From positions 10,738-74,737 of IMG/VR virus record IMGVR_UViG_3300038465_000055: a stretch of DNA of 64,000 bases. The stretch is one strand, 5' to 3'. This DNA is from a virus. The notes under the pieces were generated by a model. The model made no database searches, was not told the DNA's origin, and worked only from the letters and a program-made list of their open reading frames with translations. How positions within the stretch are numbered: the stretch's first letter is position 1; each line of letters begins with the position of its first letter. Position numbers and translations under genes: made by a program. This document shows, piece after piece, positions 8,952 through 38,889 of this stretch.

Positions 8952-8970
8952 GACGATATCTCCCTTCCTT

Positions 8971-11373
8971 TTATTGCCTCGTGGCAACATCTAACTGCAT
9001 GACCCCGACACCTCCATTGTATCCAGTGCCAAAATTATTAGCATTTTCTTCTGTGGCTGAAACAAAGTGAAACCCAGAGACCGCTGGATAGTTGGCAATT
9101 GAGATTGGGCTCGCAAAAAAAGAATTTGCAGTAGCCGTTTCCATCAGAGCACGAGCATCAAAACAAGTCGTTCCGTCAAGGCATGTACCTGTGACAGAAC
9201 CAGACCCCGCCGAAGCGGATGTAAATGCCTGCACCTGATAGCTTGCCGTAAAACCATTCAGGGGAAGTCCAACGACAAACGATGCCCTGTTATTGACTGA
9301 GTTGTCGGCCGCACGGACCGCGCTCGCTCCGGATTGCAACCATACACTCACAGTGTCGGTGACCGTCGTTTTGACGTCGACTTGGTTGTACATATTCCAG
9401 ACACCGAACATCGCAGCGCCGCCACCGCCTGCAGCGCTACCCCAAACATAACTTATCGAACCATTTGCAATGGCATACACGGTGCCGAGATACGTGGCTT
9501 GGTTCGCAGCGACCGAACCATAGTTCGTCGATCCGTTGAAGCAATTCGCCAGCGCATTCTTGTTTGTTGGATATGGCCGCGTGATCTGATCGATGACGGT
9601 GTAGCCGGTGCCGCGCGACGTATTCGATCCTCCGGTATCGGCCGCCCAGCCGCCGCCGCCGCCGCCAGCAGTTGACATCGCCAAGCAAATCCTGTTGGCG
9701 CCACCATGCACCCACCAAACGTCATAGACCTGAGATCCGACGACCTGACCTGCGCTCGCCGCTGCGACCATCGCATCGATAACCTCGCATGAGGCGACCG
9801 TGTCGATCAGATCAAGCGTGCCATTGAAATACGGGACTCCGCCGCCCACCGCGCAATCATATCGCAGCGTCGTCTGGTTCGCGCACGACGACCCGCCGCA
9901 AGACGTTGCGAGCATGACCGGGGTATTAGCGGCCAGCGTGATGCGACCCTGCGGCGCGATGACGGCGCCCGCAACCGTGCATGTTCCGGTGCTTGTAATG
10001 CTGCACGTTCCAGAGACAGCTATTCCAGATCCCGCCGCGATAATAACGTTGGTCACCGTTCCAGTGCCGCCCGCCGTCAGCCAAGCCGGCACGCCGGTCG
10101 GCCCTTCGGAAAATACCTGCGTGCCGCTATTGTTACCGGCCAGCGTCGTCCAGATGGTGCCGTTCCAGAAAGCGAAGTCGCCAACTCGAGTCGGAACAGG
10201 CATCAATGCCGTGATCGCAGCCGGCGCCCCGCTCTGACCCGTACCGCCATTTGCGATCGGCGCAATACCCGTCACGCCTCCGTTGCCGCTGGCGCCTAGA
10301 TTTATCGCCGACAGCCACGAACCCGAGATCGTCCCAGAGTTGATGGCCGAGCCCGCGATCGATGGCGTACCGCCGAGCGCATAAGTTCCGGTGATCGTGC
10401 CTGTGATCGCCGGCCCGGTGCCAAACGTGACAGTCGAATTGAATATAGCGCCGCCTGTGACAGCCAGAAAAAAACCGCCGATGGTCGCGCCGCCCAAAGC
10501 CAGCGACGTTCCCGCTGCCACACCGAGCGACGGCGTCGTCAAGGCCATATTGGTGGCGGCGATCCCGCTGGGTAGCGTTGCGGAGAATGACGGAACGTTC
10601 GATCCGTTCGTCACCAACACCGAATTAGCAGCGAGCGCTGCCGCCGTCATGGTTCCACCGTTCGTCGAATTGTACGGAACGCCAGTGCCGCCGCTTATGG
10701 TCGTGGTTCCATAGGTGATGCCGGTAGCTGGCGCCACGATCGAGCACGTGCTTCCGAGGGCGCATGGGATGCCGTTCACGGTCGTGAGGGCAACCGCTCC
10801 ATTCACATAGTAGTTTCCGCTGACATTGATGGTGCCCGCGCCGGTCAGCGTTCCCATCGTCGTGCCGACCGTTACGCTGCCGTCTTGCTCGACCCCAAAC
10901 CTGTCCGTCAACGTCGCGCTGCCATTCGGCGTAACGCCAAAGCGCAAATAGGTTCCATTCTGGCCCACGCTCCAATTCTGTGCCGCGTAGGTTCTGATCG
11001 CCGCCTGCGGGCCGACCACTCCGGTTCCGTTATAGCCGAACGCATTCAACGAACAGACTTCATCCGCGGACTGCAACGTTGTCGGCGCCGCTTCCGTGCC
11101 ATCCCAGCGCACGCAACTATAGCGCGGTACGCTAGCGTAGGCGTCCAGCTCCGTCCTTACCGTCGTTCCAGCAGCTCCGACAATCTGCAAACCGCTGCCA
11201 GCCAAAAAAGCCGGCGTCGTCTGCGAGGCGTTTAGATTGATGATCTGGGGAGAAAGAAACGTGTTGATCGCGGTCGTGAATGCGCAGTTGACGCACGAAG
11301 GCGGACTTGGCTGCGCCGCTGCACCGACAACAGAAACAGCCAGAGCGAATAGTGCCGCGATAAAACTGCGCAT
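8971..11373 (-). CDS. Gly/Thr/Ala-rich fibre-like protein with Sec-type signal peptide
   Basis: MRSFIAALFALAVSVVGAAA-Q; fibre-type PIANGGTG motif; many close Cys pairs; follows the tail-fibre genes. Confidence 0.75.
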   Translation of the reverse strand: MRSFIAALFALAVSVVGAAAQPSPPSCVNCAFTTAINTFLSPQIINLNASQTTPAFLAGSGLQIVGAAGTTVRTELDAYASVPRYSCVRWDGTEAAPTTLQSADEVCSLNAFGYNGTGVVGPQAAIRTYAAQNWSVGQNGTYLRFGVTPNGSATLTDRFGVEQDGSVTVGTTMGTLTGAGTINVSGNYYVNGAVALTTVNGIPCALGSTCSIVAPATGITYGTTTISGGTGVPYNSTNGGTMTAAALAANSVLVTNGSNVPSFSATLPSGIAATNMALTTPSLGVAAGTSLALGGATIGGFFLAVTGGAIFNSTVTFGTGPAITGTITGTYALGGTPSIAGSAINSGTISGSWLSAINLGASGNGGVTGIAPIANGGTGQSGAPAAITALMPVPTRVGDFAFWNGTIWTTLAGNNSGTQVFSEGPTGVPAWLTAGGTGTVTNVIIAAGSGIAVSGTCSITSTGTCTVAGAVIAPQGRITLAANTPVMLATSCGGSSCANQTTLRYDCAVGGGVPYFNGTLDLIDTVASCEVIDAMVAAASAGQVVGSQVYDVWWVHGGANRICLAMSTAGGGGGGWAADTGGSNTSRGTGYTVIDQITRPYPTNKNALANCFNGSTNYGSVAANQATYLGTVYAIANGSISYVWGSAAGGGGAAMFGVWNMYNQVDVKTTVTDTVSVWLQSGASAVRAADNSVNNRASFVVGLPLNGFTASYQVQAFTSASAGSGSVTGTCLDGTTCFDARALMETATANSFFASPISIANYPAVSGFHFVSATEENANNFGTGYNGGVGVMQLDVATRQ

Positions 11374-12556: not shown

Positions 12557-13879
12557 TCAAAGTTTGAGATACCACGTTCCGCTCATCGCTAGATGGACAG
12601 TGTTGTGGGCGCCGCCGCCGGTGTTGTACGAAAGAACCGACTGACCGCTGGTAGCCCCCGATCCCGATCCGGAAACTGCAATCTGAACCGGAGACGGAGA
12701 ACCAATCTGTAGGATTGGAGATGGGCCACCTTCGAGGTTAACGTTGTACACCGATCCAGTAATGATATCCGTGTAGTTTGATACGCCAGTGATGCTGACG
12801 CTGACGGACAATGCTCCTCCGCTCGAATCGATCTGCGGAATCTCGGTCGGAGTCAGCGTATGCAGGTTTTGTCCAAGAATAGATCCCGGTATAGTCGCGC
12901 TCCCCGAGCTGAATGGTACACCGCTCAACAACGTCGTGGCAGGGCCGCCCATCGTGTCGACGCCGATCGGGCTCTTGCCTCGCATGTCGAGCGTCGTGAT
13001 CGCGCAGTTTGCCGCAAAGTCCGCCGCTGCATTGACGCCTCTAGCGACAAGAGCGCCAGCGCTGTTACGAAGCGGACATTGCACGTTCGAAAATTCGTTC
13101 CAGTGCCATTCGAACAAATTGATCGTGGTTGGATCAGCAAACCCTGTGGCATTCGACGCCGCATTGCCTATCGTCAGTGTATTGGCGGTAACCCAACCCG
13201 ATATCGTTTCCGACGTCGGACGCCACTTGAAATCGCCAGTGGTAGCTATGCCAGCGCTGGACTGAGATTCCTGAGATGCACTGATGAGCTGATAAGGGCC
13301 GCTCCCGGGATCGTAAATCGTGAAGGCGCCCGCAGCCACAATAGCGCCCGTACCAAGAGCGCTGCCGTTGGGATTTACGATCGCGAAGCTTCCGGCGCCT
13401 AGATTGAGCGTCGATGGTCCAGTGTTGCTTGTGGCAGCAAGGATATCGATCACCATGCCTTGCTGGCGCGTGGTGACTGCCGGGCTCAAAACGACAGCGT
13501 AGGCGTTGACTGTTCCGGTATCCTGCGCTGATGTCGCGCTTCCAGATTGGGCCTGCACGATCTGCATCATGAGGGCCATCGTTCCAGCGGTCGGTCCCAT
13601 CTGGAAGATATCGCCAGCATTCCATGCCAGCGCAACGGTGCCTTCCTGACCGCGCAGGATCGTGAAGGTATCCGCAGCCGTCGCGGTCACCCACACCACC
13701 TCGGTGATCAAACTGTTGCCAGCCGCGACAAGAGTGCCGATGAAAAATTTATTACCAGCGATCACCGGAAAATTTGAGCCCTCGCCTGCAACCAAGGTCA
13801 GACTTGTCGCCGCCGCAGTGATCGGACTCGCCAGCGTGCCAGTCGCGTTATCCTTGAACAGCATCAGCGGAAAAGTCAT
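12557..13879 (-). CDS. Tail fibre protein with collar-like domain
   Basis: N-terminal baseplate-attachment region (RGQEGT); LDMRGKSPIG...HTLTPTEIP...GGAHNT. Confidence 0.8.
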   Translation of the reverse strand: MTFPLMLFKDNATGTLASPITAAATSLTLVAGEGSNFPVIAGNKFFIGTLVAAGNSLITEVVWVTATAADTFTILRGQEGTVALAWNAGDIFQMGPTAGTMALMMQIVQAQSGSATSAQDTGTVNAYAVVLSPAVTTRQQGMVIDILAATSNTGPSTLNLGAGSFAIVNPNGSALGTGAIVAAGAFTIYDPGSGPYQLISASQESQSSAGIATTGDFKWRPTSETISGWVTANTLTIGNAASNATGFADPTTINLFEWHWNEFSNVQCPLRNSAGALVARGVNAAADFAANCAITTLDMRGKSPIGVDTMGGPATTLLSGVPFSSGSATIPGSILGQNLHTLTPTEIPQIDSSGGALSVSVSITGVSNYTDIITGSVYNVNLEGGPSPILQIGSPSPVQIAVSGSGSGATSGQSVLSYNTGGGAHNTVHLAMSGTWYLKL

Positions 13880-23313: not shown

Positions 23314-24699
23314 TTATGCGTTGACGATGAAATTCGAAACCGAGAGATTGTATATGATCTGTTTGAACCCGCGCGCCGGGACATAGGCAATCGACAACCC
23401 GCGGTATATCCCCGCCGGGAAGTCGGTCGGATTTTCCGCAGCATTGATCAGGAATGGTTCGGCGTTGACGACGGTCATCCCGGTATAGGCGCCAGATTCA
23501 AACGCTGTGATGAAGTCGCTCTGCGAGAGCTGTGTTTGTATAGTGTTGCCATTGAGAACGAGGCCGTTTGTGACACCTTGCTGCATCGTGCTCAATGCAA
23601 CCCGCTGTATGCGGTTGATGCCGTTCTGATCATAGTACAACGGATTGTTTTTGTTGTTCGAATTGGCGACGACATAATTCGAGGTATTGAGGTCGAGGTT
23701 GATTTCAACCCAATCGACCGAATACCAATAGAGCATGTCGTTGCCGTCCAGCGACGTGCCATCGCGCAGGATGACGTTCGACAACCCGGCTTCCGAAGCT
23801 GGGCCACCATAGTTGACGAAAGCCGCTTCGAACTCGGTGGTCTGCGTTCCGAAGCCCGCCGCCGGCCATGGCGTGATGCCGAAGCCGTAGTTGTAGCAGA
23901 ACGGAGTCGCCTTGCTTGTGGATGACGGATTCTGCCCGATCAGGCTGCGGAACGGCCATGCCGCGCCGAATTCGGTTGGCGGCGCATCTGGCGATGGAAT
24001 GAAGATGAACGCCGACTTGTCCGCGCCAACATAATCGGTGTAGGTCCCCGGCGTGCTGGTCGTGATGAAGTAAAGCCGCGATGTCGGAGTCGTGTATTGC
24101 GCTATCAGCGCGAGATACTGCGACAGGCCATCCCATTCTGACGGGACGAGGAACGCATAGATCGTGCCGGGATTGGCCGCGATATAGGTCGCCAGCGCAG
24201 CGATCGCAGCAACCGGCGCCAGATCGCCCAGCTCAAGCACATAGGGTGCAACCTGACTCCCCTGCGCCCAGAACGTATTATTCTGCGTGACCAGCTCGTT
24301 GACGTCGGCAGATATCCAAGTGCCGGGCACCGTTTCCGCCCCCGGATTCGCCGCCAGCGGATAAGTAAAGGTGCTGGCACCGGTCACCGTCGCCAAGAAT
24401 GTGCCGTTGTAAGCAGCCGGCACCGCACCAACGATCGCGACTCCCAACGTCGAAGGATTTGGAAGCCCATGAGGCGCCGCGGTGGTAACGGTTGCGATAC
24501 CACTCAGCCACGTGATCGAGGTGATCGCCGCCCCCGGCGTCAGGATCGAATTGATGGAATTGGACTGCGTCAGGAGTTGCCTCGTCCCCGGCGCCAGCGT
24601 GGTGCCTCCGACCGAAACGATGGCGCCAGTTTGCTGCAAGGTCGAAGGGGCGGGCGCGGAAACGATGTTCGCGTTGACGATCGTGATCGGATTGCTCAT
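23314..24699 (-). CDS. Tail sheath protein (DUF3383-like) with inserted FCCH-like beta domain
   Basis: YWYSVDWVEIN...NPLYYDQNGI; 461 aa; position in operon. Confidence 0.85.
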   Translation of the reverse strand: MSNPITIVNANIVSAPAPSTLQQTGAIVSVGGTTLAPGTRQLLTQSNSINSILTPGAAITSITWLSGIATVTTAAPHGLPNPSTLGVAIVGAVPAAYNGTFLATVTGASTFTYPLAANPGAETVPGTWISADVNELVTQNNTFWAQGSQVAPYVLELGDLAPVAAIAALATYIAANPGTIYAFLVPSEWDGLSQYLALIAQYTTPTSRLYFITTSTPGTYTDYVGADKSAFIFIPSPDAPPTEFGAAWPFRSLIGQNPSSTSKATPFCYNYGFGITPWPAAGFGTQTTEFEAAFVNYGGPASEAGLSNVILRDGTSLDGNDMLYWYSVDWVEINLDLNTSNYVVANSNNKNNPLYYDQNGINRIQRVALSTMQQGVTNGLVLNGNTIQTQLSQSDFITAFESGAYTGMTVVNAEPFLINAAENPTDFPAGIYRGLSIAYVPARGFKQIIYNLSVSNFIVNA

Positions 24700-26100: not shown

Positions 26101-26547
26101 TTACGTGACCCATGCTCGAAGTGATGATTCGTACAATTCTGTATCAACAAACGACACCGGACGCGAGTTAGATCGACGTCCGCGCTTCTTCTTCCGCCCG
26201 CTCCGCTTCTTCCCCAAGGCACGGTCGATCGCTGCCTGCGTCGGCACGCCGGGATAGCCAAGGCTGTCCATTTCTCCGTTTGTGATGAATTCCTTCATGC
26301 CTTCTTCGATCTTCGAGGCGCCGCCCGCGAACACATCGATGGTTGCCGGGGCCCCCATCAGCAGACTTTCGAGCGCTCCGCGCGCGCCTTCCTCCATCGC
26401 CGTCGCCATGTCCGGCCCGTGAACCTGCGAATAGATTTCGAGGATATGATATTTGTCCTCAAGCCAGCCTGCGACGTCGCCGGTCGTCACCGTGCCCTTC
26501 TGGTCATAAGGCAGATCGTCAATGACTCCGAGATGAAGTACGGGCAT
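26101..26547 (-). CDS. Neck/tail-completion protein
   Basis: LHLGVID.PY...RPVSFVDTELYESS. Confidence 0.75.
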   Translation of the reverse strand: MPVLHLGVIDDLPYDQKGTVTTGDVAGWLEDKYHILEIYSQVHGPDMATAMEEGARGALESLLMGAPATIDVFAGGASKIEEGMKEFITNGEMDSLGYPGVPTQAAIDRALGKKRSGRKKKRGRRSNSRPVSFVDTELYESSLRAWVT

Positions 26548-26561
26548 TTATCTCGCTTCCA

Positions 26562-29500
26562 TCAGTGACCGCTGTTGAAACTCGACGTGCCATTATAATT
26601 TTGCCAGAACGGCGAAGTGAGCGGGTTGCAGAACAGACTAGTACACGAACTAAACCCCCATTGTTGCGAGAGAAGAAAATTCAAAGACGAAGGAGACCCC
26701 GAATTAGGCATCAAACCAAAGGTGACTTGATTGATGTCGGTCCCCATGAATCCCTTGTAGTAATACTCCCATGTCACGGCGAATGACGGATCATTCTTAT
26801 ACCCGGTAAAAACTGCGTCATTGAAAGCGTTGGCCGCTCCTGTACTCGACGGATCAGAGAACGTGATGCCTTCTCCCGCGTTCGTTCCCGTGGCATTGCC
26901 AGATAGAATCACATAGTTGCCGGTGCATGTTGTAGGGCATCCGCTGTTGATCGACGAAACCGTCAGCCCCGAAATATCGCCCGCGGCAACCGTCATCCCT
27001 GTGTAATAGCCAAGAGCAGTCGAGAGACTGTCGACGACGGTGTTTGTGTGAGTCGACCCGGTAATTCCAACCGTAGTGCCGATCTGGATCGGAGGCACCG
27101 CCGCAGCGAAGGTAGCTGCCGCATAAGGATTAACTTCAATGTCGCCTTCGTACCACCGCATCAAAACCGGACCCATCCCAGAAGGTCGAGGATTGGCTGC
27201 CGTCCCGCAACTCTGTTGAGTGGAGCTGCTGTAGCTACAGGCAAGAGTTTGCCAGAGCTGAAGATTAGTCTGGACCGTGGAATTGTTGCCTTGCGTAAAA
27301 GTAAATGGCGTCGATGTGTATATCAGAGAGTTTAGCGACAACGTACCGGTGCCGGGCGTGCCGCAATTTACATCGCTGCCGTTTTGGATTCCGGCAGTGA
27401 ACCCTTTCATGGTGAAGTTCCACGGCGAAGTGGTCAGCGCCGCCCCCGCGGATGTTGTGGCTGCACTTGTGACGTAGAGACCGGCCCCACCGGTCGTGCC
27501 CGAGGTCTGGCTGACGATCGTGGTGGTGATGGTGGACGGAACGCCTGTGCCAGCAACCGCAGCACCTATCGCAATGGTGCCCGTGACGCCGGTTACGGTG
27601 AGGTTGGTTCCGCTGCCAGTCCCCGTGAAGCTGGCTGTGCCGGTGATGGTGTCCGTCGTATAGACTTGGTTTCCTGCTAAACCACTTGGAAGCGTTCCAC
27701 CGGGCGATGTGAACAGGAAGAAGTTGCCATTCCCTCCCGGCTCGTATGACGATGCGCCTGTCCCCGTCGTGAACGTGGTGCCGCTGCAAGTAAGTGCTTG
27801 GGGTGCTCTGCGCGGATAAGTCCCCCTCAGGTCTTGGTCGATGAGCGATATGGCGGCGGCTTCGCTGCCGTTGATCCAGTCGTTCACGACAGGTTGGAAA
27901 AACCAAGCTGATGCTAGCCCGAATCCAGAGCCTCCGACGTCCGACCCGTTCGTGATGTTGTTGCCGCCAACATATGGCGCACCTCCGATCGTGTTGATGT
28001 CGTCGATGGGGCGGTTAGGATAAACATTTCGTCCTGCTACTGAACACCCGCTGGTAAACGTTCCGCCAAAATGTACGCAAAGTGGAGCGTTCGTTGCTGT
28101 GCTTAGAAGTGACCCGCCCAGAGCCAAGATATAATCGCTGGAAGAAAGGGCGCAGCAGAATTGCCCCATCATGGCGGCTTCGTAACGAGAGCGATTTGAG
28201 CCACTAAATACGGACGAAAATGCAAGCGCTGTGTCCGAAGCCAGCACCGCCATGTAGTGCGTATAATCGAGCGGAGAGCCGTTGGTTATATTGAGCCAGT
28301 TCTCACGCTGGATCGCCAGCCGCCATGGTTGATACGCCGGATTCCAGACCTCATTGCCATCTTCAGTAAGCACCTTGAGCGGCGCTTTCATCAAACTAAG
28401 AATAAGGGAGGCCGTTCTGGTCTTGTAAGTGTTGGTGGCCGTTATCGGAAGATTCAGCCAGAAGTTCGCGTCGGTCTGATTGGCAAGATTGATGAAATAC
28501 TCATACGGCGCCATGCCCGGCGAGACGCCGCCGCCCTGTTCGATGACCCCGCCTAAAATGGCATCGTAAGCAAACGTGGAGTAGCCGGTGCCGAGCTGGT
28601 TGGAATTTATTCCACCACAGTTGTCGTTGTAGCCCTGTCCTTCGCAGTTCAAGATGAACGCTTGAGCGCCGCCGGCCTTCGTGGAAACAACGATTGCAAA
28701 TGGACTTATGTAGCCTAGGCAACCGGAACAGGCATGGACAAACGCTGTGTTGAAGGTGACGTGGTAGCCATCACTTGAGATGTTAGTTATTGTCTGGACG
28801 CCACCAGCCTCGGTGGTGCCGCTCGTCAATCCATTGACATAGAGCACATTTCCGACAATGGCGGCGGACACGTTGCCCGCGTAAAGCGCCTGCGCCGCAA
28901 CAGTCTGCGAAACGCTGACAGCATAAGTTCCTGTGCCACCGGCCCCCGTGCAAGCAGGCGCACAAGCAGATGAATTGGTCGTGGAGTTTCCGACAATCGT
29001 GGTGTTGGCCGCAACCGACGTTCCGGAGATAGAAAAGACCGTGTCTCCGAGCAGTACGGAGGCGCTGCCGCCCCCGTAGCTGTTGAAGGCGCTGACGGTC
29101 ATCGTCGTACCAGAAATGCTGGCCGTCGTCATCTGGCTGTGCGCGATCGACGCCGAAACGCACGGACCGCCGCCGCAGTTGGTCGTGCTGTCTCCGACCG
29201 CGTTGACTAGAGTCCATCCCGGCGTCGGTCCTGTGCCGGGATTTCCCATCACGGTGTCGCCATCAGCCCATGCCCCTAGGCTCTGGTCGTTGGCGCTGTT
29301 GTTCATGTCGTCAGAAGGCGCGCAGGTAAAAATATATGGCGCCTGTCCTGACGAGCCAGCCGTGAGCGGACACGTCGGCGTAGTATTGCCCGCTCCTCCG
29401 GAACGAGCGCTCGGCACATTACGGCTGGTGAATGTGAGATGGAGGTCGGTGATCTGAGCACGATAACCAAACGTCGTCATCTTGGTAGTGTCGGAAGCGC

Positions 29501-30359
29501 TTGATCCCATATTTCGGAGCCAGCCGAAGCCAGCTCCCTTTATGGCTGCTACAAATTCAGGAACGAAGAACGAGCCGGAAGCCCCGCTGGTTGACATCGC
29601 AAGCGCGTATTGGGAGCAATCATCGTTCGGCGCGCCGCCGTTATTGGTGCTCCGACAAAGTATCCACTCGCCGCTGCCCGGCGCAAAAGCATAACCCGTC
29701 GGATAAAGAATGGAGAGACCGAAGCACTGCGACGTGCATTGAAACACTGCCGTGCCAGCCGTGCTGCCGTTGCACTTGAAATTCTGGTTGCTGCTGGTGA
29801 ACGTGCCCGGTGTGCCGGAACCGCTGAGCGTCATTCCACCCGTGAAAGACGACACCACAAATGTCGGCGTGGTCGTATTGCCGAAAACTATCGACATGAA
29901 CGGACGTGTCGCGGCGCACGACAGCGTATAGGTTGAGTTTAACCACAGACCATTAGTCTGCGAACCAATCTGCTGCGTCAGCGTCGTAATCGGATATTGG
30001 CTACCATCGACGTCGATGGAAGTATTGTTGTTTGTTGCTTGGTTTCCCCTCAGGGCATTTGTGTAAGTGATCGGCGTAAGATCCGCGCCGACACTGAGCA
30101 TTACTTGGGAAATGCCGGCGGGTGGCGATAAGGGCGCTGAACCATGACGATAGCCGACCGGCAGAAAGCGAGACTCACCTTGGCCGAAAAATTTAACGGC
30201 TCCCGACAACGAAGCCTTCTGCTCAATGATTAGATGCTGGATCTGAATCGAGTAGGCCAGAAGATTATTGCGCTGCGGATTGACCGGCATCGCAAAGGAA
30301 GTCGTCGTCGCCAGTGCGACTACCACACCAGCCAGAGCTGATAAAAATCTTTTGAACAT
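26562..30359 (-). CDS. Large exported protein with glycoside-hydrolase-like core and beta-rich insertions
   Basis: Signal peptide MFKRFLSALAGVVVALATTTSFA; FINLANQ...FWLNLP...EDGNEVWN; many Cys pairs. Confidence 0.7.
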   Translation of the reverse strand: MFKRFLSALAGVVVALATTTSFAMPVNPQRNNLLAYSIQIQHLIIEQKASLSGAVKFFGQGESRFLPVGYRHGSAPLSPPAGISQVMLSVGADLTPITYTNALRGNQATNNNTSIDVDGSQYPITTLTQQIGSQTNGLWLNSTYTLSCAATRPFMSIVFGNTTTPTFVVSSFTGGMTLSGSGTPGTFTSSNQNFKCNGSTAGTAVFQCTSQCFGLSILYPTGYAFAPGSGEWILCRSTNNGGAPNDDCSQYALAMSTSGASGSFFVPEFVAAIKGAGFGWLRNMGSSASDTTKMTTFGYRAQITDLHLTFTSRNVPSARSGGAGNTTPTCPLTAGSSGQAPYIFTCAPSDDMNNSANDQSLGAWADGDTVMGNPGTGPTPGWTLVNAVGDSTTNCGGGPCVSASIAHSQMTTASISGTTMTVSAFNSYGGGSASVLLGDTVFSISGTSVAANTTIVGNSTTNSSACAPACTGAGGTGTYAVSVSQTVAAQALYAGNVSAAIVGNVLYVNGLTSGTTEAGGVQTITNISSDGYHVTFNTAFVHACSGCLGYISPFAIVVSTKAGGAQAFILNCEGQGYNDNCGGINSNQLGTGYSTFAYDAILGGVIEQGGGVSPGMAPYEYFINLANQTDANFWLNLPITATNTYKTRTASLILSLMKAPLKVLTEDGNEVWNPAYQPWRLAIQRENWLNITNGSPLDYTHYMAVLASDTALAFSSVFSGSNRSRYEAAMMGQFCCALSSSDYILALGGSLLSTATNAPLCVHFGGTFTSGCSVAGRNVYPNRPIDDINTIGGAPYVGGNNITNGSDVGGSGFGLASAWFFQPVVNDWINGSEAAAISLIDQDLRGTYPRRAPQALTCSGTTFTTGTGASSYEPGGNGNFFLFTSPGGTLPSGLAGNQVYTTDTITGTASFTGTGSGTNLTVTGVTGTIAIGAAVAGTGVPSTITTTIVSQTSGTTGGAGLYVTSAATTSAGAALTTSPWNFTMKGFTAGIQNGSDVNCGTPGTGTLSLNSLIYTSTPFTFTQGNNSTVQTNLQLWQTLACSYSSSTQQSCGTAANPRPSGMGPVLMRWYEGDIEVNPYAAATFAAAVPPIQIGTTVGITGSTHTNTVVDSLSTALGYYTGMTVAAGDISGLTVSSINSGCPTTCTGNYVILSGNATGTNAGEGITFSDPSSTGAANAFNDAVFTGYKNDPSFAVTWEYYYKGFMGTDINQVTFGLMPNSGSPSSLNFLLSQQWGFSSCTSLFCNPLTSPFWQNYNGTSSFNSGH

Positions 30360-30365
30360 TTTTTA

Positions 30366-31166
30366 TTAAGTTCCTGGATACCAGTATGCCCACGGATTTT
30401 CGGACCACTTCAACAGAGTGTTGAACGACAGCATGTTGCCAAAATTAAAACTATACATATACGCAGCGATGTGACCCGGAAACGCTGCCACTGCCGCAGT
30501 GTGGTTGCCTATGTTGAAGGTGCCGTCACCTGCCGAGGCTCCGACGCTGGCCAATGCAGCCTGTGTGGCCACTACTTTTCCCGTCGCCAGATTGCGAATG
30601 ATTCCGTCAATTGAATTTGCACCGTTGGCATAGTTACTGAAGGCCGCAAAGTAAGGCACCCCAACCGCAAGCGCATAGCCAGCAGTCGGAAACGCTCCGG
30701 CGGTTTCCGGAAATAAAACAGGAGCAGTACTTACAAGCAAAGAGTTGCTCGTATTTGCATTTGCCGTGCTGTGGAGAGCAGCCGTGACTGTTGGGATGCT
30801 GTCCATGACGAAAATGCAACCATACGTAAAACCACCGATCGGATTCCTTGCCGAGAAACCGGAAAACTCGATCTGATCCGTGCTGGCGCCGTTGAACTTG
30901 ACGCTTGGACCGATCACCGGGTCTAGAAATCCAGTCGGAGCACCAATGATCGTTCCCGGTTTGCCACCTAGAAGGTTTGTGAAATTCCCGCCTAAATTGG
31001 CCACCGCCGATATCCACGGCTGTCCAGAAACAGGATGACTCTGATTCATCCCCGGAGCCACCCCAGCCGGAAACGCAAACGGCGGCCTTTGAGCTGCAAA
31101 CAGTTTGCGCGACGGCAACAGGAGGGCTGGGGCAGCAACTTGGATAAGACGACGGCGCGACAGCAT
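30366..31166 (-). CDS. LamG/concanavalin-like protein with Tat-like signal
   Basis: MLSRRRLIQVAAPALLLP; beta-sandwich pattern FNIG...FPGHIA...WSENPW. Confidence 0.7.
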   Translation of the reverse strand: MLSRRRLIQVAAPALLLPSRKLFAAQRPPFAFPAGVAPGMNQSHPVSGQPWISAVANLGGNFTNLLGGKPGTIIGAPTGFLDPVIGPSVKFNGASTDQIEFSGFSARNPIGGFTYGCIFVMDSIPTVTAALHSTANANTSNSLLVSTAPVLFPETAGAFPTAGYALAVGVPYFAAFSNYANGANSIDGIIRNLATGKVVATQAALASVGASAGDGTFNIGNHTAAVAAFPGHIAAYMYSFNFGNMLSFNTLLKWSENPWAYWYPGT

Positions 31167-31811
31167 TTAGTTTTGTCCTGCAATCGGAGCTAACTTTATC
31201 AAATTTCCGGTCCCGCCCAGCGCAGCGCCACAGTTATTTTGGGTCATCACCTTGAACTGAAGTGCAGGAACGTTAATCGGCCCCGGCGCTTTATAGGTGT
31301 TGGTGCTGATCGCAGCAGTGGGAAGAAAAATTATAGCATCTGGAGAGCGGACCATTTGCGCTGCTGTGGCAGTCTCGAACGTTGTTCCGTCTCCGGTTTG
31401 AAGAAACCAGATCGAGATGTTGCCGCCCGCCGTGCACGTCGCGGTGGCGCCAGAGGTGAAGAAGATTTCACCGAGTTGTGCGCCGCCTGTGTTTGAATTG
31501 TTGAACAGTCCAGAGGTGCCACCAACCGAACTGACGGCAACCGCACCATTGGCTAGCGCGTTCAATTCTATCGATTCCAGCGTCAGCAGCGCCGAGTAAA
31601 GACCATTGTTCGACGAGCCGAGATACCATTTGTGCGGCCCTGCATTCGGCGCGCAGTTTCCGTCATCTCCGGTTTGCGTGCTCATACCGACCGAGGACGG
31701 CACGTTGTTGTTGATCGAGATCGGATTGGTGCACGCCGCCAGCGCTGGCGCGGCGAACGCGATCAGCCAAAGCACGACTGCTGTTAGTGGTGCTGCGAGA
31801 CGCTTGATCAT
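31167..31811 (-). CDS. Exported beta-rich protein
   Basis: Signal peptide MIKRLAAPLTAVVLWLIAFAAPALA; WFLQTGDGTTFE. Confidence 0.75.
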   Translation of the reverse strand: MIKRLAAPLTAVVLWLIAFAAPALAACTNPISINNNVPSSVGMSTQTGDDGNCAPNAGPHKWYLGSSNNGLYSALLTLESIELNALANGAVAVSSVGGTSGLFNNSNTGGAQLGEIFFTSGATATCTAGGNISIWFLQTGDGTTFETATAAQMVRSPDAIIFLPTAAISTNTYKAPGPINVPALQFKVMTQNNCGAALGGTGNLIKLAPIAGQN

Positions 31812-31823
31812 AGTGATCGCTCC

Positions 31824-32009
31824 TTACCGGAAGATGAGAGAGAAATATTGACTGTTGCAGGCTTGCGAAAAATCCAGCTCGTTCGAGCACGAGTTCCCGC
31901 CACCACTGCCGGCGCCGAGCAGCATGATGCTTGCCGCGCGCGACTGATCGCCGCGAACCGAGCACGACGCGATCGCGATGAGAACGAGAATGATAATGCG
32001 CTTCTTCAC
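31824..32009 (-). CDS. 61-aa exported or lipoprotein peptide carrying the LDFSxxxNSQY motif (GTG start)
   Basis: GGAG RBS; MKKRIIILVLIAIAS-C lipobox; C-terminus ELDFSQACNSQYFSLIFR. Confidence 0.7.
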   Translation of the reverse strand: MKKRIIILVLIAIASCSVRGDQSRAASIMLLGAGSGGGNSCSNELDFSQACNSQYFSLIFR

Positions 32010-32020
32010 GTATCCACTCC

Positions 32021-35000
32021 TCAGAATTGCATGTAGCTGATCGAACCGGCGACAGCCACCGCTGCCGTTGTAATGGCGCACAGCGCGTTTCCTGACGGCA
32101 CCTTCAAGATCGTCCCCACACCGCCGCCTTTCGTAAGACCCGGATTGGACGTGCTCAGAGAATATGCCCCGCTAAGTGTGCCCTGCCCTGTAGCGCAAGC
32201 CGTTCCAGTTCCGTAAATCCATTGGAACGTGTCCACACCCGCGGCCATGAAATCTTCCGACGTGACATAGATCGACGTCGAGCCCGACAGCGCGACGATC
32301 TGGGTTGTAGTCGCCGTCGAGATGCTGATCGGCGCAGACAGGCTGTCCTGCGACAAAGTCTGGCGCCCCACGCCAGTTCCGGTCTGACCTTGGCCGGTTG
32401 CCGTAGCCGTTCCAGCCGTCTGGGCATTGTTGGTCTGCACCACAACGCTGGGCGCCGAGCCCGCCAGCGTCGCGGTATCGGTGGCAACGGTGACTCGAGG
32501 AACTGTGGCTCCCTGCGCTCCGGTACCGGTGGCCACCGCGGCGTTGCCGACCATCAGGTTGGCAAAGAGACCGTTCGTGGCACTCAGGACCGCGTTGCCT
32601 TGCAGGAGGTTGGAGAAGATGCCGTTGGTCGCTGACAAGGCCGAGCCGCCTTGCGTGAGACCAGCCGTCCACGTGCCCGATTGCGTGGCTGCAACCGTGC
32701 CTGTGATCGTGGTCGACGTCAGCGTCACGGCAAGACCGGAGACACCCGCCGCAACCAGCAATTCACCGCGCGAACTGAATAGCAGCGCAGCCTGTTGCGT
32801 GTTCGTCATTGTCGGCTGCGCCGAAAGATACTGACCGCCGACCGTGAGCGCGCTGGTCGACGCCGCCGTCGCCGCATTGAGCGGACCCGTAACCTGCGGG
32901 ATCGGCCCCTTGATATCGTCGTCAAGCTGGCCGAGACAGCCGATGATGGTATTCCCTGCAACCGAGCAGGTATGCGCCGAGGTGATCGTTCCCTCGACGA
33001 CGTTGGCGCCGTTGGCGAGCGAGCCCGCTGCGAACGCACCGGACGCGAACGCGCCCGACGCATAGGCGCCCGAAGCGATCGAGCCCGACGCATAGGCGCC
33101 GCTCGCCACCGCACCGGACACCATCGTGACAGCACCGCCCCCACCGCCCACCTTGACGTTGACTAGCAGGTTGCCCGCGGCATCCATCTGGAACGGCGAG
33201 AAGTTCCCGGACGTGATCGTGGCCGGCGTCGTGTTGAACTGGCCACCGACTAGAACTGAGCTGAATGTGCCCGTCGCGTTCTGGCCAGCGAAATCGAGCA
33301 GCGCGCCGGCATTGCCGACGATCCGATCGCTCCACGTGCCAGATTGCGTGACTGGAATGGCGCTCTGGTTGCTGGCGATCGCAACCGAGACGCTATTGGC
33401 CATCGTGACTTGGCCGTTTGGATTGACGCTATTCGGCGAGATCGATACGACGATCGCCGTGTCGGTAGCCAACGGCGGCGTGCTCCCGAGCTTGATTGCC
33501 GCCCCGACGACGTTCTGACCAGCCGCGCCCGTGACTGTACCGCCGAACACGACCGGGGGATTGGCGTTCGCAACGCCCACTGCCGTGGGACCAAAGACCG
33601 CCCCCCCGCCGCCGCCGCCGCCGGTGCATCCAGAGATACAAGCGACATTCAGGGCATTCGTGGTCGAGGCTATGACGTTCCCGGAGCCGTCGACGATCTG
33701 GGTTTTTGCCGCGCCGCTGGTTTGCAAGGTGGCCGTGGCCGCGCCCGTGGGAAGGCTGATAGTTCCTGTGATGTTGTTGATGTTGTTCGTGGCGCCGGTG
33801 AGCTGGACGCCAAAGGTACCCGTTCCGACGACGGTCGCATTGAGGGCCGCCGCCGTGGCCTGCGTCACAGCGAACGAGCTGTTGCCGATCGAACCGCCGG
33901 CCTGAAATGGCGTTCCAAGCGCTGCTATGATAGTCGCCTGATTGGCCGCCGTGCCGGCTCCCCCCAAGGTGCCAAGGTTGACCGTAGGCGTTGCCGCGAA
34001 GGCAGGGAGCGTCCCCAAGATGCCAAAGGCCGTATTGGCGATGCTGCCACCGGCTTGGAACGGCGTGCCCAGCGCCGTCTGGATCGCCGCCAGCGTGGTC
34101 TGTGTCGCGACCCCCGCGATGGTCCCCAGATTGACGGTTGGCGTCGCAGCAAACGCAGGCAGCGTGCCCGTGATGCCAAACCCGGTATTGGTGATCGAGC
34201 CGATCGCGTTGGTGCCCGCAGCGAGCCCAATCGACCAAGCGCCAGACTGCGCGGCCGGGAATGTGCCGCCAGCGCCGGTAACAAGCAGCGCCGAGCCGTT
34301 CGAACCGGTATTGGCGAGAGAGACCTGAAGCGGGGCCGCCGATACGCCGACTTCCGCTCCCGCCGCGTTGCGCAGGTTCATCATGACAGCGCGGAATTCC
34401 GTCAACTGCACCATGCCCTGATCGCCAGCCGTCAGGGGATTTGCCGTCACCGTCGTCTGATAGAAACCGCCCGCGCCAGCGAACAGCGAAGCGCCGGCCG
34501 CGAACAGCGCACCATCCGCCGTGCTCACGCCCGAACCCGAGCAGTTCGAGCACTGGATATTCAGGTTGCCGCCGGTACCGGTGAGCGGAACAAGATTGCC
34601 GCCCTGCAACATACCGACGTAGGTGGCCGAGCCCGGCGCCAGCGTGGCCACCGCTCCAACGGACGCATTCGGAGCCGCGCCGCAGCCCGTGCCGCAATTG
34701 AATGTCGGGGTGGCCGCAAATGCCGGGAGCGTGCCGCCGAGACTGACAGTGCCGCTGACCGGTTGCGTTACCGCAGATCCGTCGACCATGAGGCCATTGG
34801 CGGTCGCGACCAATCCCGTCAGGACGCCGCCGACGCTGGCGCCGAGATAGGTGGCAGAGGCCGGCACCGCGATCGAGGTGAGCGCAACCGACGCATTCGA
34901 TCCGTTGCAACCGCTGACGCAATTGACATTCGGCGTGCCCGCAACCGAGACAGGAAGGGTGACCGAAGCCTTGATGCTTACCCATTCTCCATTGGTGACG

Positions 35001-35389
35001 TCGCCGAGCTGCGGCTGAAAATTACCCGACACATCCTTGAAGCCGCCCGGCGTGCCGAAATTTCCGATCGGGCTTGCGAAGGTGGCCGAGACGCCAGTGC
35101 CGCTGCAATTCGAGCATGTGATGCTGCCGGTGACTGCAAACGTAGCTCCCGCGCCGGGCGAGACAAAGATCGGATTGGCCGACACACCCATCGGGTTGCC
35201 AGTCTGATCCTGAATGACGTTAGCCGCGCATATGACGCTGTTCGAGCAATTGAACCCATGCAGTTGGCGCGGGATCTTGTAGGCGTCGAGGAACGAATAA
35301 TTAGGGAACGTGGCCTGTTGAGCCAGAGCTGGGGAAAGGCCAACGAGCGACAGCGACCAGATCGCCAATGCCAAGAGAGCTTTTTTCAT
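32021..35389 (-). CDS. Large repetitive fibre-like protein with Sec-type signal peptide
   Basis: MKKALLALAIWSLSLVGLSPALA-Q; repeats GTLPAFAATPT x3, ALGTPFQAGGSI x2, CSNCSG x2, ASGA(Y/F) run. Confidence 0.8.
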   Translation of the reverse strand: MKKALLALAIWSLSLVGLSPALAQQATFPNYSFLDAYKIPRQLHGFNCSNSVICAANVIQDQTGNPMGVSANPIFVSPGAGATFAVTGSITCSNCSGTGVSATFASPIGNFGTPGGFKDVSGNFQPQLGDVTNGEWVSIKASVTLPVSVAGTPNVNCVSGCNGSNASVALTSIAVPASATYLGASVGGVLTGLVATANGLMVDGSAVTQPVSGTVSLGGTLPAFAATPTFNCGTGCGAAPNASVGAVATLAPGSATYVGMLQGGNLVPLTGTGGNLNIQCSNCSGSGVSTADGALFAAGASLFAGAGGFYQTTVTANPLTAGDQGMVQLTEFRAVMMNLRNAAGAEVGVSAAPLQVSLANTGSNGSALLVTGAGGTFPAAQSGAWSIGLAAGTNAIGSITNTGFGITGTLPAFAATPTVNLGTIAGVATQTTLAAIQTALGTPFQAGGSIANTAFGILGTLPAFAATPTVNLGTLGGAGTAANQATIIAALGTPFQAGGSIGNSSFAVTQATAAALNATVVGTGTFGVQLTGATNNINNITGTISLPTGAATATLQTSGAAKTQIVDGSGNVIASTTNALNVACISGCTGGGGGGGAVFGPTAVGVANANPPVVFGGTVTGAAGQNVVGAAIKLGSTPPLATDTAIVVSISPNSVNPNGQVTMANSVSVAIASNQSAIPVTQSGTWSDRIVGNAGALLDFAGQNATGTFSSVLVGGQFNTTPATITSGNFSPFQMDAAGNLLVNVKVGGGGGAVTMVSGAVASGAYASGSIASGAYASGAFASGAFAAGSLANGANVVEGTITSAHTCSVAGNTIIGCLGQLDDDIKGPIPQVTGPLNAATAASTSALTVGGQYLSAQPTMTNTQQAALLFSSRGELLVAAGVSGLAVTLTSTTITGTVAATQSGTWTAGLTQGGSALSATNGIFSNLLQGNAVLSATNGLFANLMVGNAAVATGTGAQGATVPRVTVATDTATLAGSAPSVVVQTNNAQTAGTATATGQGQTGTGVGRQTLSQDSLSAPISISTATTTQIVALSGSTSIYVTSEDFMAAGVDTFQWIYGTGTACATGQGTLSGAYSLSTSNPGLTKGGGVGTILKVPSGNALCAITTAAVAVAGSISYMQF

Positions 35390-35414
35390 CGCTCGAATTC
35401 CCCAAAGGAAAGTG

Positions 35415-35855
35415 TCAGCCGCCGATCAGCGGTATGTACTGCGAATTTTCTGCATCCGAAAAATCAAGGTCAGGATCTTCTTCGCCTCGTATCCGCAGGT
35501 AAACGATTTCCACGAAGATACGGCCCTGCGCCGTCGTCGCATTGTTCATCAGAGCATACACTGATCCGATTGCTCCGACCGACAACCAGACGGAAACAAA
35601 CGGATTATTTATTGCCTTGTTACCTATCACCAAACCTTCATCCGGAGGTTCGATCTGATCCCACGTCGAAGTCACGATCGTGTCGCCCGCCGCCGCCGGT
35701 GGCACAGCAAGCCGTATCGAATAATCGATACCGAAGTCGAGTTTTTCGATCGAATTCTTTGCTGGCCATTCAAGCAGTTGGCGCCCGCGACCGGGGGTAA
35801 CGATTCGCGAAAATCCTGCCGGCAGAATAACCCGCTGTGAATTAACGCCGACCAT
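35415..35855 (-). CDS. Fibre adaptor-like protein with C-terminal LDFSxxxNSQY motif
   Basis: KLDFGIDYS...VWLSVG...TTAQGR; ends DLDFSDAENSQYIPLIGG. Confidence 0.65.
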   Translation of the reverse strand: MVGVNSQRVILPAGFSRIVTPGRGRQLLEWPAKNSIEKLDFGIDYSIRLAVPPAAAGDTIVTSTWDQIEPPDEGLVIGNKAINNPFVSVWLSVGAIGSVYALMNNATTAQGRIFVEIVYLRIRGEEDPDLDFSDAENSQYIPLIGG

Positions 35856-35868
35856 GACCGTTCACGCC

Positions 35869-36183
35869 CTATTTATAATATGACACGTTGAGGACAGCGG
35901 TTGCCGACTGCTGGATGAATTGCAGCGCGGCCAGATTGGCGAGGGGAATCGGCGCAGCTCCAGCCGTGATCTGCATCCCGATCGTCGCAGTTGGCGCTGT
36001 CCCGTCATCGCGATAATTCACATTTGCGCCCGTGCACATCACCAAGGCATAGGTCGCGCCCGCCGGCACTGTAAACGCCGCCGCCACTGTCAATGCCGTG
36101 ATCTGCTGGAATCCCAACGGCTTGCCTGACGGGATGATCGTGACCGGCGTCGACGCACCAGCCTGCACAAGTTGGTTTGCCAT
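35869..36183 (-). CDS. Small beta-rich structural protein (possible capsid spike/fibre base)
   Basis: VPAGATYAL...YRDDGTAPT...LNVSYY. Confidence 0.7.
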   Translation of the reverse strand: MANQLVQAGASTPVTIIPSGKPLGFQQITALTVAAAFTVPAGATYALVMCTGANVNYRDDGTAPTATIGMQITAGAAPIPLANLAALQFIQQSATAVLNVSYYK

Positions 36184-36196: not shown

Positions 36197-36715
36197 TCAT
36201 GTGATCCCGAACAGAGTCGGTCCCCACTTCTGTGCGATCGACAGATAGCGTCGGCCCCATGGCGTCTTCATGTTTTGCAGATCCGACAGCGAGAGCTGCG
36301 CGAGCGAATCAGGAACGACCATCGACTCGCTTGTTCCCTCATCGCTCGCGGACGATATCACGCCTGAGACGAAACCGTTGACGTTGAATTTTCTTCGCAG
36401 ATACGCAAAGACAGGCAGCCTGTCCTTACCGATGGTCCCATAAAACGGCGGCGGATTGCCGAACGCATCACCGATGTCAGGCGCATAATTGATCAGGATA
36501 TCCGCTGCCAGATTGTAGACCGCCTGATGATAAAGGAACGGCACAGCACACCTGATGAAGCCGTTCACCGTTTCCCGCGCCGAGTGAAAAGCAAAGAACA
36601 CCACCGGCGAGGTTGGTGGCAACTGTGCCGGAGTGATCTGCATAAAACCGTAGACGAATTGAAGGAATCCATCGACGGTCGGCGGGGGAACGATGAACGG
36701 CGGATCATTATCCAT
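36197..36715 (-). CDS. Head-tail adaptor (DUF4054-like)
   Basis: AVYNLAAD...GVISSASDEGTS...KTPWGRRYL. Confidence 0.8.
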   Translation of the reverse strand: MDNDPPFIVPPPTVDGFLQFVYGFMQITPAQLPPTSPVVFFAFHSARETVNGFIRCAVPFLYHQAVYNLAADILINYAPDIGDAFGNPPPFYGTIGKDRLPVFAYLRRKFNVNGFVSGVISSASDEGTSESMVVPDSLAQLSLSDLQNMKTPWGRRYLSIAQKWGPTLFGIT

Positions 36716-36969
36716 CAGCGCGGTCCCTCGAACGACTCGAGAAACAGGCCCTCTCGATAGGCGCCATTGTGCAGGACATAATGCCGCGCGCCCCACTTGA
36801 TGACGTCTGGAGGCCCGCCGGGCGGCAGCCTGATCGTTGTGACGCGCTCCCCTGACTTGGTGAACAACTGCACGTCGCCTCTATTTTCAGGACGCTTCAT
36901 TTCCTGCTGTGGCATGTCAAATCCCGTGATGTTCCAAACCTCGCCTTTTTCATCTGCCCACTGGCCCAC
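36715..36969 (-). CDS. Hypothetical protein
   Basis: Coupled ORF. Confidence 0.55.
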   Translation of the reverse strand: MGQWADEKGEVWNITGFDMPQQEMKRPENRGDVQLFTKSGERVTTIRLPPGGPPDVIKWGARHYVLHNGAYREGLFLESFEGPR

Positions 36970-37866: not shown

Positions 37867-38889
37867 TCAGCTATATTGCATCGATATCACTTGGACTGCC
37901 TCACCACGGAGTCCCCATCCACTCGTAATCCTCATCTCGGACACGACGTCGACGGCGCCACCGGGCAGAGGCGCGGTCAGTTCGCGCGGCGCGACCATGT
38001 CGCAGAGCTGCAAGACGCAAGCGTCTAGCCCCGGAGCGATGTTAGCGAATTCGTTGGTGTTCCAGTTCGTTGTCGGCTGCGGATTCTCGACTTCCGGCAT
38101 GACGAGCAAGACCGCATCAAGGCCACCGGCGCCCTTGCCGATCAGCGTGTCGTCATAGGCCCAGATGATCTCGTCACCGTTCAAGCCACCGACGCCCTCG
38201 ACCACGCCAGCGGTTGACTGCGAACCGGCGCCTGCGCGCTGATACTGCGTGAGCTGGACGACGTTGTACTCGAACTGGCCGAGCGTGCGCTGCGATCCGA
38301 GGATCGTGAATTTGCGGCCGATGCCGAGCTGGTTGGTGCGAGTCTTCATCGCGAGCAACTGGCTGATGACGAAGAACGCCATCTCGCCGTTGTCATAGGT
38401 GATGACGGTATCGTTGCCGTAACTGTCCGGCGGTAGGTTGATCGCGACGGCGCCTGCCGTATTCAGCAGGCCCTCGCCGTTGGCCGGGTTCATGCCGTAG
38501 AGCAGCGCGGATCGAGTGAGCTGGAAATGCCCCTGACGCATACCTAGGCGATAGGCTTGTTCGATCGCCATGCCGCGACGCGCCATCGCCGCTGAATCGT
38601 GATGATCCCATTCGGCACGAACCCGCAGCAGGTAGGTCGCCGTCTGGATGTATGAAAGGAAAATGCCGATCGACGGGAGCTGGTTATAGGCGCTCTGTCC
38701 CGCCGCCATCTTGGTGCGAACATCGGCGCGATTGATGTAGCAGGCCAGATCGCCTTCACCTAGCCTCACCATCAGGTCGCCGCTTGGAAGTGTCTTGAAG
38801 GCGCCCGAAGCTTGGCTATAGGGCAGCAACACTTCCGGAAGCGTGAGCGACGGATTGAGCGTGATAAAGGCCGGTGCAATTACGGGCAT
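37867..38889 (-). CDS. Major capsid protein
   Basis: 340 aa after scaffold and decoration genes; LLYGMNPANGEGLLN; MRITSGW. Confidence 0.85.
   Translation of the reverse strand: MPVIAPAFITLNPSLTLPEVLLPYSQASGAFKTLPSGDLMVRLGEGDLACYINRADVRTKMAAGQSAYNQLPSIGIFLSYIQTATYLLRVRAEWDHHDSAAMARRGMAIEQAYRLGMRQGHFQLTRSALLYGMNPANGEGLLNTAGAVAINLPPDSYGNDTVITYDNGEMAFFVISQLLAMKTRTNQLGIGRKFTILGSQRTLGQFEYNVVQLTQYQRAGAGSQSTAGVVEGVGGLNGDEIIWAYDDTLIGKGAGGLDAVLLVMPEVENPQPTTNWNTNEFANIAPGLDACVLQLCDMVAPRELTAPLPGGAVDVVSEMRITSGWGLRGEAVQVISMQYS

Follow-up and report, generated by a model that had tools for sequence, protein, structure and literature searches.

A putative portable docking tag for accessory fibres at the C-termini of phage neck and tail proteins

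We analyzed a 64,000-nt stretch of viral DNA (hereafter the window; positions 10,738 to 74,737 of the IMG/VR record IMGVR_UViG_3300038465_000055), which makes up most of one 74,737-nt virus record, and focused on a 15-residue peptide, LDFSxxxNSQYxxLI, at the C-terminal end of 2 of its predicted proteins, a 146-amino acid (aa) collar-like protein and a 61-aa putative lipoprotein. We judge it probable, although well short of certain, that this peptide is a portable C-terminal docking tag for accessory fibres, of which the phage has one copy on the collar and another on the lipoprotein. The original prediction, made from the letters of the window, had already taken the motif for a docking tag, and this proposal is now strongly supported by comparative evidence, that is, by association rather than by a binding test. 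We infer the physical binding itself and its mode, the export of the small protein, and the identity of the partner in the window. All genes of the window discussed below lie on the minus strand.

The shared ending and the genes that follow it

The 2 open reading frames (ORFs) are as originally described, and each continues for 2 residues beyond the motif: the 146-aa protein ends ...DLDFSDAENSQYIPLIGG, and the small protein, 61 aa when counted from a GTG codon, ends ...ELDFSQACNSQYFSLIFR. They flank a gene for a 1122-aa protein, as had been noted, and are otherwise unrelated, BLASTP aligning the motif segment only (11/16 residues identical, E = 5e-6). The whole 74,737-nt genome holds these 2 copies of the motif and none besides, and the back-translated 45-nt pattern gave 2 matches in the window versus 0 in 100 shuffles. 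When the last 18 residues of gene products were aligned from the C-terminus and scored with BLOSUM62, the pair reached a score of 46, whereas the other gene ends of the genome did not exceed 19 (5356 pairs) and 2000 shuffled sets did not exceed 42. A chance origin of the shared ending is rejected by the BLASTP result, the gene-end scores, and the shuffles, as well as by the recurrence of the ending in IMG/VR described below. At the DNA level, 27/45 nt of the 2 copies are identical, the 60 nt upstream are unrelated, and 7 of the 11 shared residues are encoded by different codons, including a Ser encoded by AGT in one copy and TCG in the other. The likeness therefore resides in the peptide and is not that of a recent DNA repeat or duplication, and the codon differences at shared residues indicate that selection acts on the peptide. 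A DNA repeat or recombination linker was rejected on the same grounds and because the motif is kept across guanine-plus-cytosine (GC) contents of 30% to 66%.

To follow the ending beyond the window, we scanned IMG/VR with the back-translated 45-nt pattern and defined carriers as proteins with [LF][DN]F[STQH]-x3-NS[QM]Y-x2-[LV][ILV] at 0 to 6 residues from the C-terminus, a definition under which both window proteins fall. The scan returned 18 loci, spanning the GC range given above, and in all 18 the pattern lies in frame at the very end of an ORF; 14 of these ORFs stop directly after ...LI, and 4 continue for 4 or 5 residues. The encoded proteins range from 68 to 887 aa and show no relation to one another ahead of the tag. 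When 5.8 billion proteins were searched with a tag profile that was not anchored at the C-terminus, 27 proteins matched, every time at the extreme C-terminus, and revealed variants such as LNFQLILNSQYIPVV, LDFSVDTNSMYLGLV, and LDFHVSSNSQYLPL, with LNF, TNSMY, or the endings VV, LV, or LL. The motif search across phage proteomes that the original prediction had called for thus revealed more than 40 structural proteins that are unrelated in other respects but have this conserved module at the C-terminus.

Among the carriers are unrelated structural proteins of ring or hub positions. Three families are terminators of the tail or neck: tail completion gp17-like (PF11367), to which an annotated protein (P0178/L013) from a prophage of the planctomycete Limnoglobus roseus belongs, tail terminator (PF13554), and neck terminator (PF23961). 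The others comprise a distal tail protein (phrog_1302), a Mu gp48-like wedge of the baseplate (PF10076), J-like proteins of the tail tip (730 and 887 aa), and a Gp77-like collar (P0115). Further carriers are encoded beside an SU10-type head-tail adaptor (locus L017) or beside baseplate J (L022), or are small proteins of 68 to 98 aa. The annotated domains of the carriers always finish before the tag, and the Pfam domains do so well before it. The 146-aa Gp77-like protein of the window fits among such virion tail and neck carriers, whereas the 61-aa protein has a lipoprotein-type signal instead, the only one among about 45 carriers. A relaxed pattern found a single tag in each of 5 whole viral records (52–168 kb), so that 2 tags per genome are unusual. 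For cultured phages, a tblastn search of 50,697 GenBank phages matched neither a 23-aa tag segment nor either of 2 carrier families, and none of the best 25 of 300 isolate relatives of the J-like carrier aligns over its last 13 residues. In 4 low-GC loci (L015, L018, L026, and L080), a small tag carrier lies between 2 paralogues of approximately 310 to 380 aa with the ends RVRLD[VF] or KLK[LI]D[LI].

A particular class of genes accompanies the tag. Downstream of the tag ORF, 17 of the 18 IMG/VR loci have a fibre-like gene with a MAxxIxIKDGxG-type start, defined by the pattern M-x(1-4)-[LIVF]-x-[IV]-[KRL]-D-[GAS]-x-G; this putative partner is directly next in 13 loci, separated by one gene in 3 and by 2 genes in 1, and the sequence of the exception, L022, ends 1.8 kb downstream of the tag. 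Behind this N-terminus, the partners of many loci have fibre-type repeats and a C-terminal part that varies. A hidden Markov model (HMM) of the N-terminus matched only these genes at E < 1 among the 1968 ORFs of all loci, and a search starting from the partner side added one locus, L080, with the tag upstream. The partners of L016 and L021 (109 aa) are 69% identical, and the respective carriers, a siphovirus-type distal tail protein and a myovirus-type wedge, share the last 24 residues alone (16/24 identical); likewise, the partners of L013 and L028 are related, their carriers being gp17-like in one case and J-like in the other. The combination of tag and partner therefore reappears as one unit behind proteins that are not related to each other, as a socket and its plug would. 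The co-occurrence of the motif with signal-peptide fibres that had been suggested at the outset is not a general rule: the general partner has no signal peptide.

Neither Pfam nor PHROGs contains a model covering the tag or the partner N-terminus, a profile search of the PDB gave 0 matches for the tag and insignificant FimG matches only for the partner N-terminus, and a full-text literature search for NSQY with phage and tail fiber found no publication. Recoding by read-through or frameshift, which would fuse carrier and fibre, was rejected, given that the relative frames vary, 1 or 2 genes intervene, and there is no nucleotide conservation. An isopeptide bond between the partner Lys and an Asn or Asp was also considered and dropped, the Lys being R or L in several loci. 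Some loci encode signal-peptide-like proteins as well. In L030, a 548-aa protein with tailspike/virion-protein PHROG matches (8481–10127, minus strand) and a 78-aa protein (8213–8449, minus strand) lie beside the tag/partner module. Likewise beside its module, L017 encodes a 217-aa protein (9271–9924, plus strand) with a tail-fibre PHROG C-terminus and holds the only homologue of a 266-aa protein of the window (30% identity, E = 1e-14).

The tag would thus act as a short exposed extension on a virion protein at the place from which an accessory fibre is to hang, be it a neck terminator, a distal tail protein, a baseplate wedge, a tail-tip protein, or an immunoglobulin (Ig)-like collar, and would most likely capture the N-terminal end of a fibre-like protein, normally the product of the next gene downstream. 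In the pattern of the tag, a polar turn (xxxNS) separates LDFS from QYxxLI, each of which would form a short strand; the partner start has the pattern of a strand, a D-G-x-G turn, and a second strand. We infer that docking proceeds by strand complementation, and its probable mode is complementation of a beta-strand or hairpin, as the collar "rope" of phage Bas63 does for the whiskers.

The two carriers in the window and their gene neighborhood

The 146-aa protein consists of a 27-aa N-terminal extension, an Ig-like Gp77 core (approximately residues 28–123), and a 23-aa C-terminal tail that includes tag copy 1 (Table 1). Residues 33–120 match positions 1–83 of the 84-position Gp77 profile PF23148 with 57.2 bits (cut-off 27; E = 2.4e-15). 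The AlphaFold2 (AF2) model, based on a 54-sequence alignment, has a mean predicted local distance difference test (pLDDT) score of 82.7, with values above 90 in the core and of 59–73 in both tails, which are probably flexible. The best Foldseek match in the PDB is 8jou_B, the fiber-tail adaptor gp77 of phage GP4 (E = 8.4e-7, root-mean-square deviation 2.0 Å, 29% identity), with a template modeling (TM) score of 0.84 when normalized to the target. The profile and the fold match thus support the assignment as a fibre adaptor made in the original prediction. Among 1.84 billion representatives, phmmer found 197 relatives at E ≤ 1e-3, mostly single-domain proteins of 90 to 100 aa; close relatives of the window adaptor or of P0115 were found neither in IMG/VR nor in the 5.8-billion protein set. 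The position of the gene among neck genes makes its product a candidate for a ring on the head-to-tail connector that bears fibres. Three members of a tandem Gp77-like subgroup (P0006, P0043, and P0145) share another C-terminal motif, ...[LW]xLE[ND]xxGxWxWG, which may be a second docking tag of the Gp77 family.

Table 1. Features of the window around the two tag copies, in the order of transcription.
Feature	Coordinates	Strand	Description	Basis
104-aa protein	35869..36183	-	No signal; just upstream of collar gene; third candidate partner	
146-aa collar / fibre-tail adaptor	35415..35855	-	Carrier of tag copy 1	Pfam PF23148, AF2 model, Foldseek
Tag copy 1	35424..35468	-	LDFSDAENSQYIPLI, then GG and stop	Read from sequence, pattern match
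1122-aa fibre-like protein	32021..35389	-	Sec-type signal (MKK..., hydrophobic core, ALA/QQ); gene after tag copy 1; candidate partner	
61-aa ORF	31824..32009	-	Predicted lipoprotein precursor; KKR n-region, hydrophobic core, lipobox, Gly-rich linker, tag copy 2	Sequence rules
Predicted type-II signal peptide and lipobox	31962..32009	-	Residues 1–16 of the 61-aa ORF	Read directly from sequence
Tag copy 2	31833..31877	-	LDFSQACNSQYFSLI, then FR and stop; Cys pair around motif	Sequence, pattern match
214-aa protein	31167..31811	-	Lipoprotein-type signal (LAAC); gene after tag copy 2; candidate partner	

The 61-aa ORF looks like a real, separately translated gene. A GAGGAG sequence at 32017–32022, with a spacer of 7 nt to the GTG codon, overlaps the stop codon of the 1122-aa gene, and the ORF occupies a 209-nt gap in a tightly packed operon. 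Its codon-usage log-likelihood is 0.367 per codon versus 0.371 ± 0.135 for 61-codon pieces of confident genes, while the other 5 frames of the same stretch score 0 or less and off-frame pieces of genes score −0.585. The N-terminus agrees with the sequence rules for a lipoprotein signal, which ask for [LVI][ASTVI][GAS]C after a positively charged n-region and a hydrophobic h-region: its n-region is KKR, its hydrophobic core spans 11 residues, and its lipobox is IASC, the Cys being residue 16. Of the 2 further Cys residues to which attention had been drawn, one is located 4 residues before the motif and the other just before NSQY. This spacing recurs in the 80- and 81-aa small carriers of the low-GC loci L015 and L026, so that the Cys pair is a family feature and no accident. 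The ORF is known only from the window phage and a near-identical second contig, where an 85-aa call of the same ORF (P0162) differs by one conservative E-to-D change, and it matches no PHROG or Pfam family. It shares its reading frame with the 214-aa gene, one TAA and 4 codons (12 nt) lying between them (window 31812–32009).

The phage is a myovirus, with PHROG matches for a sheath (23314–24699), a baseplate hub and wedge, a portal, and a Nudix-protease; its capsid protein (37867–38889) is 50% to 55% identical to those of Pantoea phage PdC23 and of Yersinia, Klebsiella, and Shewanella relatives. The homologues of 2 neck genes, phrog_6356 and phrog_6560, adjoin each other in PdC23; in the window, these genes (36197–36796 and 26101–26547, respectively) lie approximately 10 kb apart, and the cassette between them encodes, in order, products of 104, 146, 1122, 61, 214, 266, and 1265 aa. 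Five consecutive cassette genes (window 26562–35389) begin with export-type signals of 3 kinds: Sec signals in the 1122-aa (ALA/QQ) and 1265-aa (SFA/M) proteins, lipoboxes in the 61-aa (IASC) and 214-aa (LAAC) proteins, and a signal resembling that of twin-arginine translocation (Tat) in the 266-aa protein (SRRRLIQ...LFA/A). This run of putatively exported products sits within the virion gene block, between neck genes that are adjacent in PdC23. The 146-aa collar protein has no export signal.

Under the docking reading, the cassette would have brought in a Gp77-like collar whose flexible tail, together with copy 1, would place a fibre socket on the connector. Copy 2, on a 61-aa predicted outer-membrane lipoprotein, would offer the same socket in the periplasm, and the next 4 gene products also appear to be exported. 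If the next-gene rule of the other loci holds here, the 1122-aa fibre would pair with copy 1 and the 214-aa lipoprotein with copy 2, and the former pair would have to meet across the inner membrane; alternatively, the unexported 104-aa protein is a candidate for the partner of the collar. By eye, the repeats of the 1122-aa protein resemble those of the partner fibres of other loci; against the partner N-terminus profile, its best segment (VIQDQTGNPMGVSAN, residues 58–72) is not significant (P = 0.06). The 214-aa protein has no significant similarity to partner N-termini or to other cassette proteins. The 104-aa protein has no Pfam or PHROG match, and the neighbors of its ESM Atlas model (predicted TM score 0.71) are unnamed viral proteins of approximately 90 to 105 aa; its N-terminus, MANQLVQAGAS, resembles the partner motif by eye only, hhalign being not significant (best P = 0.045). 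The 104-, 214-, 1122-, and 1265-aa proteins show no homology to one another.

Weighing the docking reading against its alternatives

Several observations count against a docking tag. The closest homologues of the collar core, P0005 and P0009, end in an acidic stretch exactly where the tag starts and have no tag, whereas P0115, a more remote member of the Gp77 family, does have it at its end (LDFSEDGNSQYLALI); the tag is therefore an add-on to the Gp77 domain and not part of it. As the IMG/VR set was picked by pattern, it is partly by construction that D, F, N, S, Q, Y, L, and I do not vary within it, and the profile matches loosen this only modestly. Another subfamily (L065, L073, L084, L096, and L097) has a partner-type N-terminus but no tag upstream, so that the coupling is not exclusive from the partner side and the N-terminal element is broader than the tag. 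No canonical partner was detectable in the window: neither the cassette proteins nor the baseplate fibre gave a significant HMM or hhalign match, none of the window proteins showed homology to a partner, and no gene of the MAxxIxIKDGxG type was recognized behind either tag. The genes after both window tags carry export signals and the collar protein carries none; a link from the collar to the 1122-aa protein would therefore require contact across compartments or after lysis. Finally, a single-sequence AF2 model of the L027 carrier and partner, joined by same-frame read-through with the stop as Q, was uninformative (pLDDT 41).

The members of the tagless subfamily are proteins of approximately 180 to 200 aa that start MAxxIKDGxGxGxxAKVDxxNRL, and upstream of each lies a small protein ending ...MN[LM][HY]LS...(G)E[EN]I... 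The 2 could form an analogous socket-and-plug pair with a different socket.

A bolder form of the docking reading, to which we give a low probability, holds that the tag and the partner N-terminus together make up a general plug-and-socket device by which phages add a fibre to any exposed C-terminus, and that the lipoprotein-borne copy of the tag is a periplasmic socket for exported, Cys-rich, fibre-like proteins that are assembled or parked outside the cytoplasm. Such exported proteins might appear on the surface of the infected cell, or they might not become part of virions until lysis.

The original prediction had also suggested that a membrane-tethered periplasmic tag could hold or chaperone the exported fibre until the virion-borne copy displaces it, or could bridge 2 fibre subunits. 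The move of the 1122-aa fibre to the collar tag might take place, for example, once holin and endolysin mix the compartments. The arrangement of the window invites this proposal: the fibre gene lies between the 2 tag copies, of which one belongs to a virion-type protein of the cytoplasm and the other to a predicted lipoprotein; the 5 consecutive genes have Sec, lipoprotein, or Tat-type signals; and the presence of 2 tags, where 5 whole records have one each, suggests a special arrangement. Nevertheless, the next-gene rule seen elsewhere points copy 2 at the 214-aa protein and not at the 1122-aa fibre, in which no partner motif is detectable. There is no second lipoprotein-borne tag among the roughly 45 carriers, and we found no precedent for tail-fibre assembly after lysis. 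The comparative evidence neither supports nor refutes such a hand-over, which we regard as unlikely.

Slightly less credible still is that the tag is real in general and the 61-aa ORF is a relic, namely, the decaying C-terminal stub of a second carrier from a former tag-plus-fibre module. A genome without a canonical partner would fit such decay, as would an ORF confined to the window phage and one near-identical contig, and a Cys-pair tag subtype otherwise seen in small carriers of unrelated low-GC phages would fit a foreign origin. A decaying stub would not, however, be expected to have gene-like codon usage over all 61 codons with the other 5 frames at 0 or below, a strong ribosome-binding site overlapping the upstream stop codon, or an N-terminus that obeys all lipoprotein-signal rules beside neighbors that carry export signals too; moreover, all conserved tag positions and the Cys pair are intact.

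The tag might instead be a recognition peptide for a chaperone, a processing protease, or a modifying enzyme, the fibre genes being mere neighbors because such genes tend to come after tail genes. Short C-terminal peptides often serve as chaperone or protease signals, and the evidence for contact between tag and fibre is indirect. We nonetheless consider this doubtful, more so than a relic, as fibre genes do not normally follow terminators, yet follow the tagged ones (L013, L014, and L020/L024/L030), the same tag subtype recurs with the same partner on unrelated carriers, and all-against-all BLAST revealed no third gene family shared across the loci. Least of all do we believe that the 61-aa protein is an ordinary phage lipoprotein with a tag-like end, such as a receptor blocker of the T5 Llp or Cor type or an outer-membrane spanin. 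The T5 llp arrangement does offer a resemblance in size, in the lipobox, and in the place beside fibre genes, but all 10 conserved tag positions and the family Cys pair stand at the exact C-terminal position, the ORF belongs to a structural cassette and not to a lysis cassette, and no PHROG or Pfam family matches it.

Comparison with known systems

The attachment of accessory and side fibres to necks, tail tips, and baseplates has been worked out in only a few solved phages, each of which looks idiosyncratic. The recurrence of the tag over hosts of widely differing GC content would provide a simple rule, recognizable in sequence, by which the fibre site on uncultured phages could be predicted and the "hypothetical" proteins that follow could be annotated; possibly, it would also allow laboratory phages to be equipped with new receptor-binding proteins on a virion protein of choice. 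Only the lipoprotein-borne copy has no parallel; it links the tag to a run of exported fibre-like proteins in a virion block. Whereas fibre docking via short terminal elements is a known kind of mechanism, the portable C-terminal tag itself appears to be undescribed within the libraries searched.

The closest parallel is the phage collar. Cryo-electron microscopy of Bas63 revealed 12 Ig-like collar proteins, homologous to GP4 gp77, on the connector, and their flexible extension, the "rope," threads through whisker dimers and completes their beta-sandwiches (PMC12609058); the collars of GP4 and DEV have been described as extra fibre attachment sites (PMC13730344). By sequence and fold, the window 146-aa protein has the same Ig-like core as GP4 gp77 (8JOU) and the Bas63 and Sf14 collars, and, like the latter 2 collars, it belongs to a myophage, where its gene lies among the neck genes. 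The differences concern the extension. GP4 gp77, of 89 aa, is tailless, the rope of GP4 being a protein of its own, and the rope of Bas63 is a long extension of the N-terminus for which no sequence motif has been reported; the extension in the window is a 15-residue C-terminal motif that also occurs on non-Gp77 proteins, and the fibres concerned are of a different kind from those of Bas63 and GP4.

The N-terminal anchors with which tail fibres and tailspikes dock on tail proteins offer a second comparison. In Burkholderia phage BcepMigl (L001, 6022–9545), a 93-aa Gp77-like protein, gp59, is followed by 3 tail-fibre genes whose products all start MALKLSNN, and a tblastn alignment ran through the gp59 stop codon into the first fibre; the window baseplate fibre (12557–13879) shares, by eye, a ...ATSLxL..GEG..FP... 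region with these fibres. The proposed system resembles such anchors in that a short terminal element would accommodate interchangeable receptor-binding proteins and in the gene order, from adaptor to fibre or fibres. In the BcepMigl type, however, the conserved element described resides on the fibre; the tag is a conserved element on the socket side as well, is C-terminal, and passes from one socket protein to another that is unrelated.

Phage lipoproteins with genes next to those for receptor binding include T5 Llp and Cor, precursors of approximately 60 to 80 aa that block the host receptor and have no docking tag. In HK97-fold systems, terminal peptides of approximately 10 to 15 residues on unrelated proteins also set the site of assembly, as do the cargo-loading peptides of encapsulins and the capsid-targeting sequences of T4. 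Unlike these peptides, which direct cargo into a shell and have no sequence similarity to the tag, the tag belongs to proteins of the tail and neck and goes together with fibre genes.

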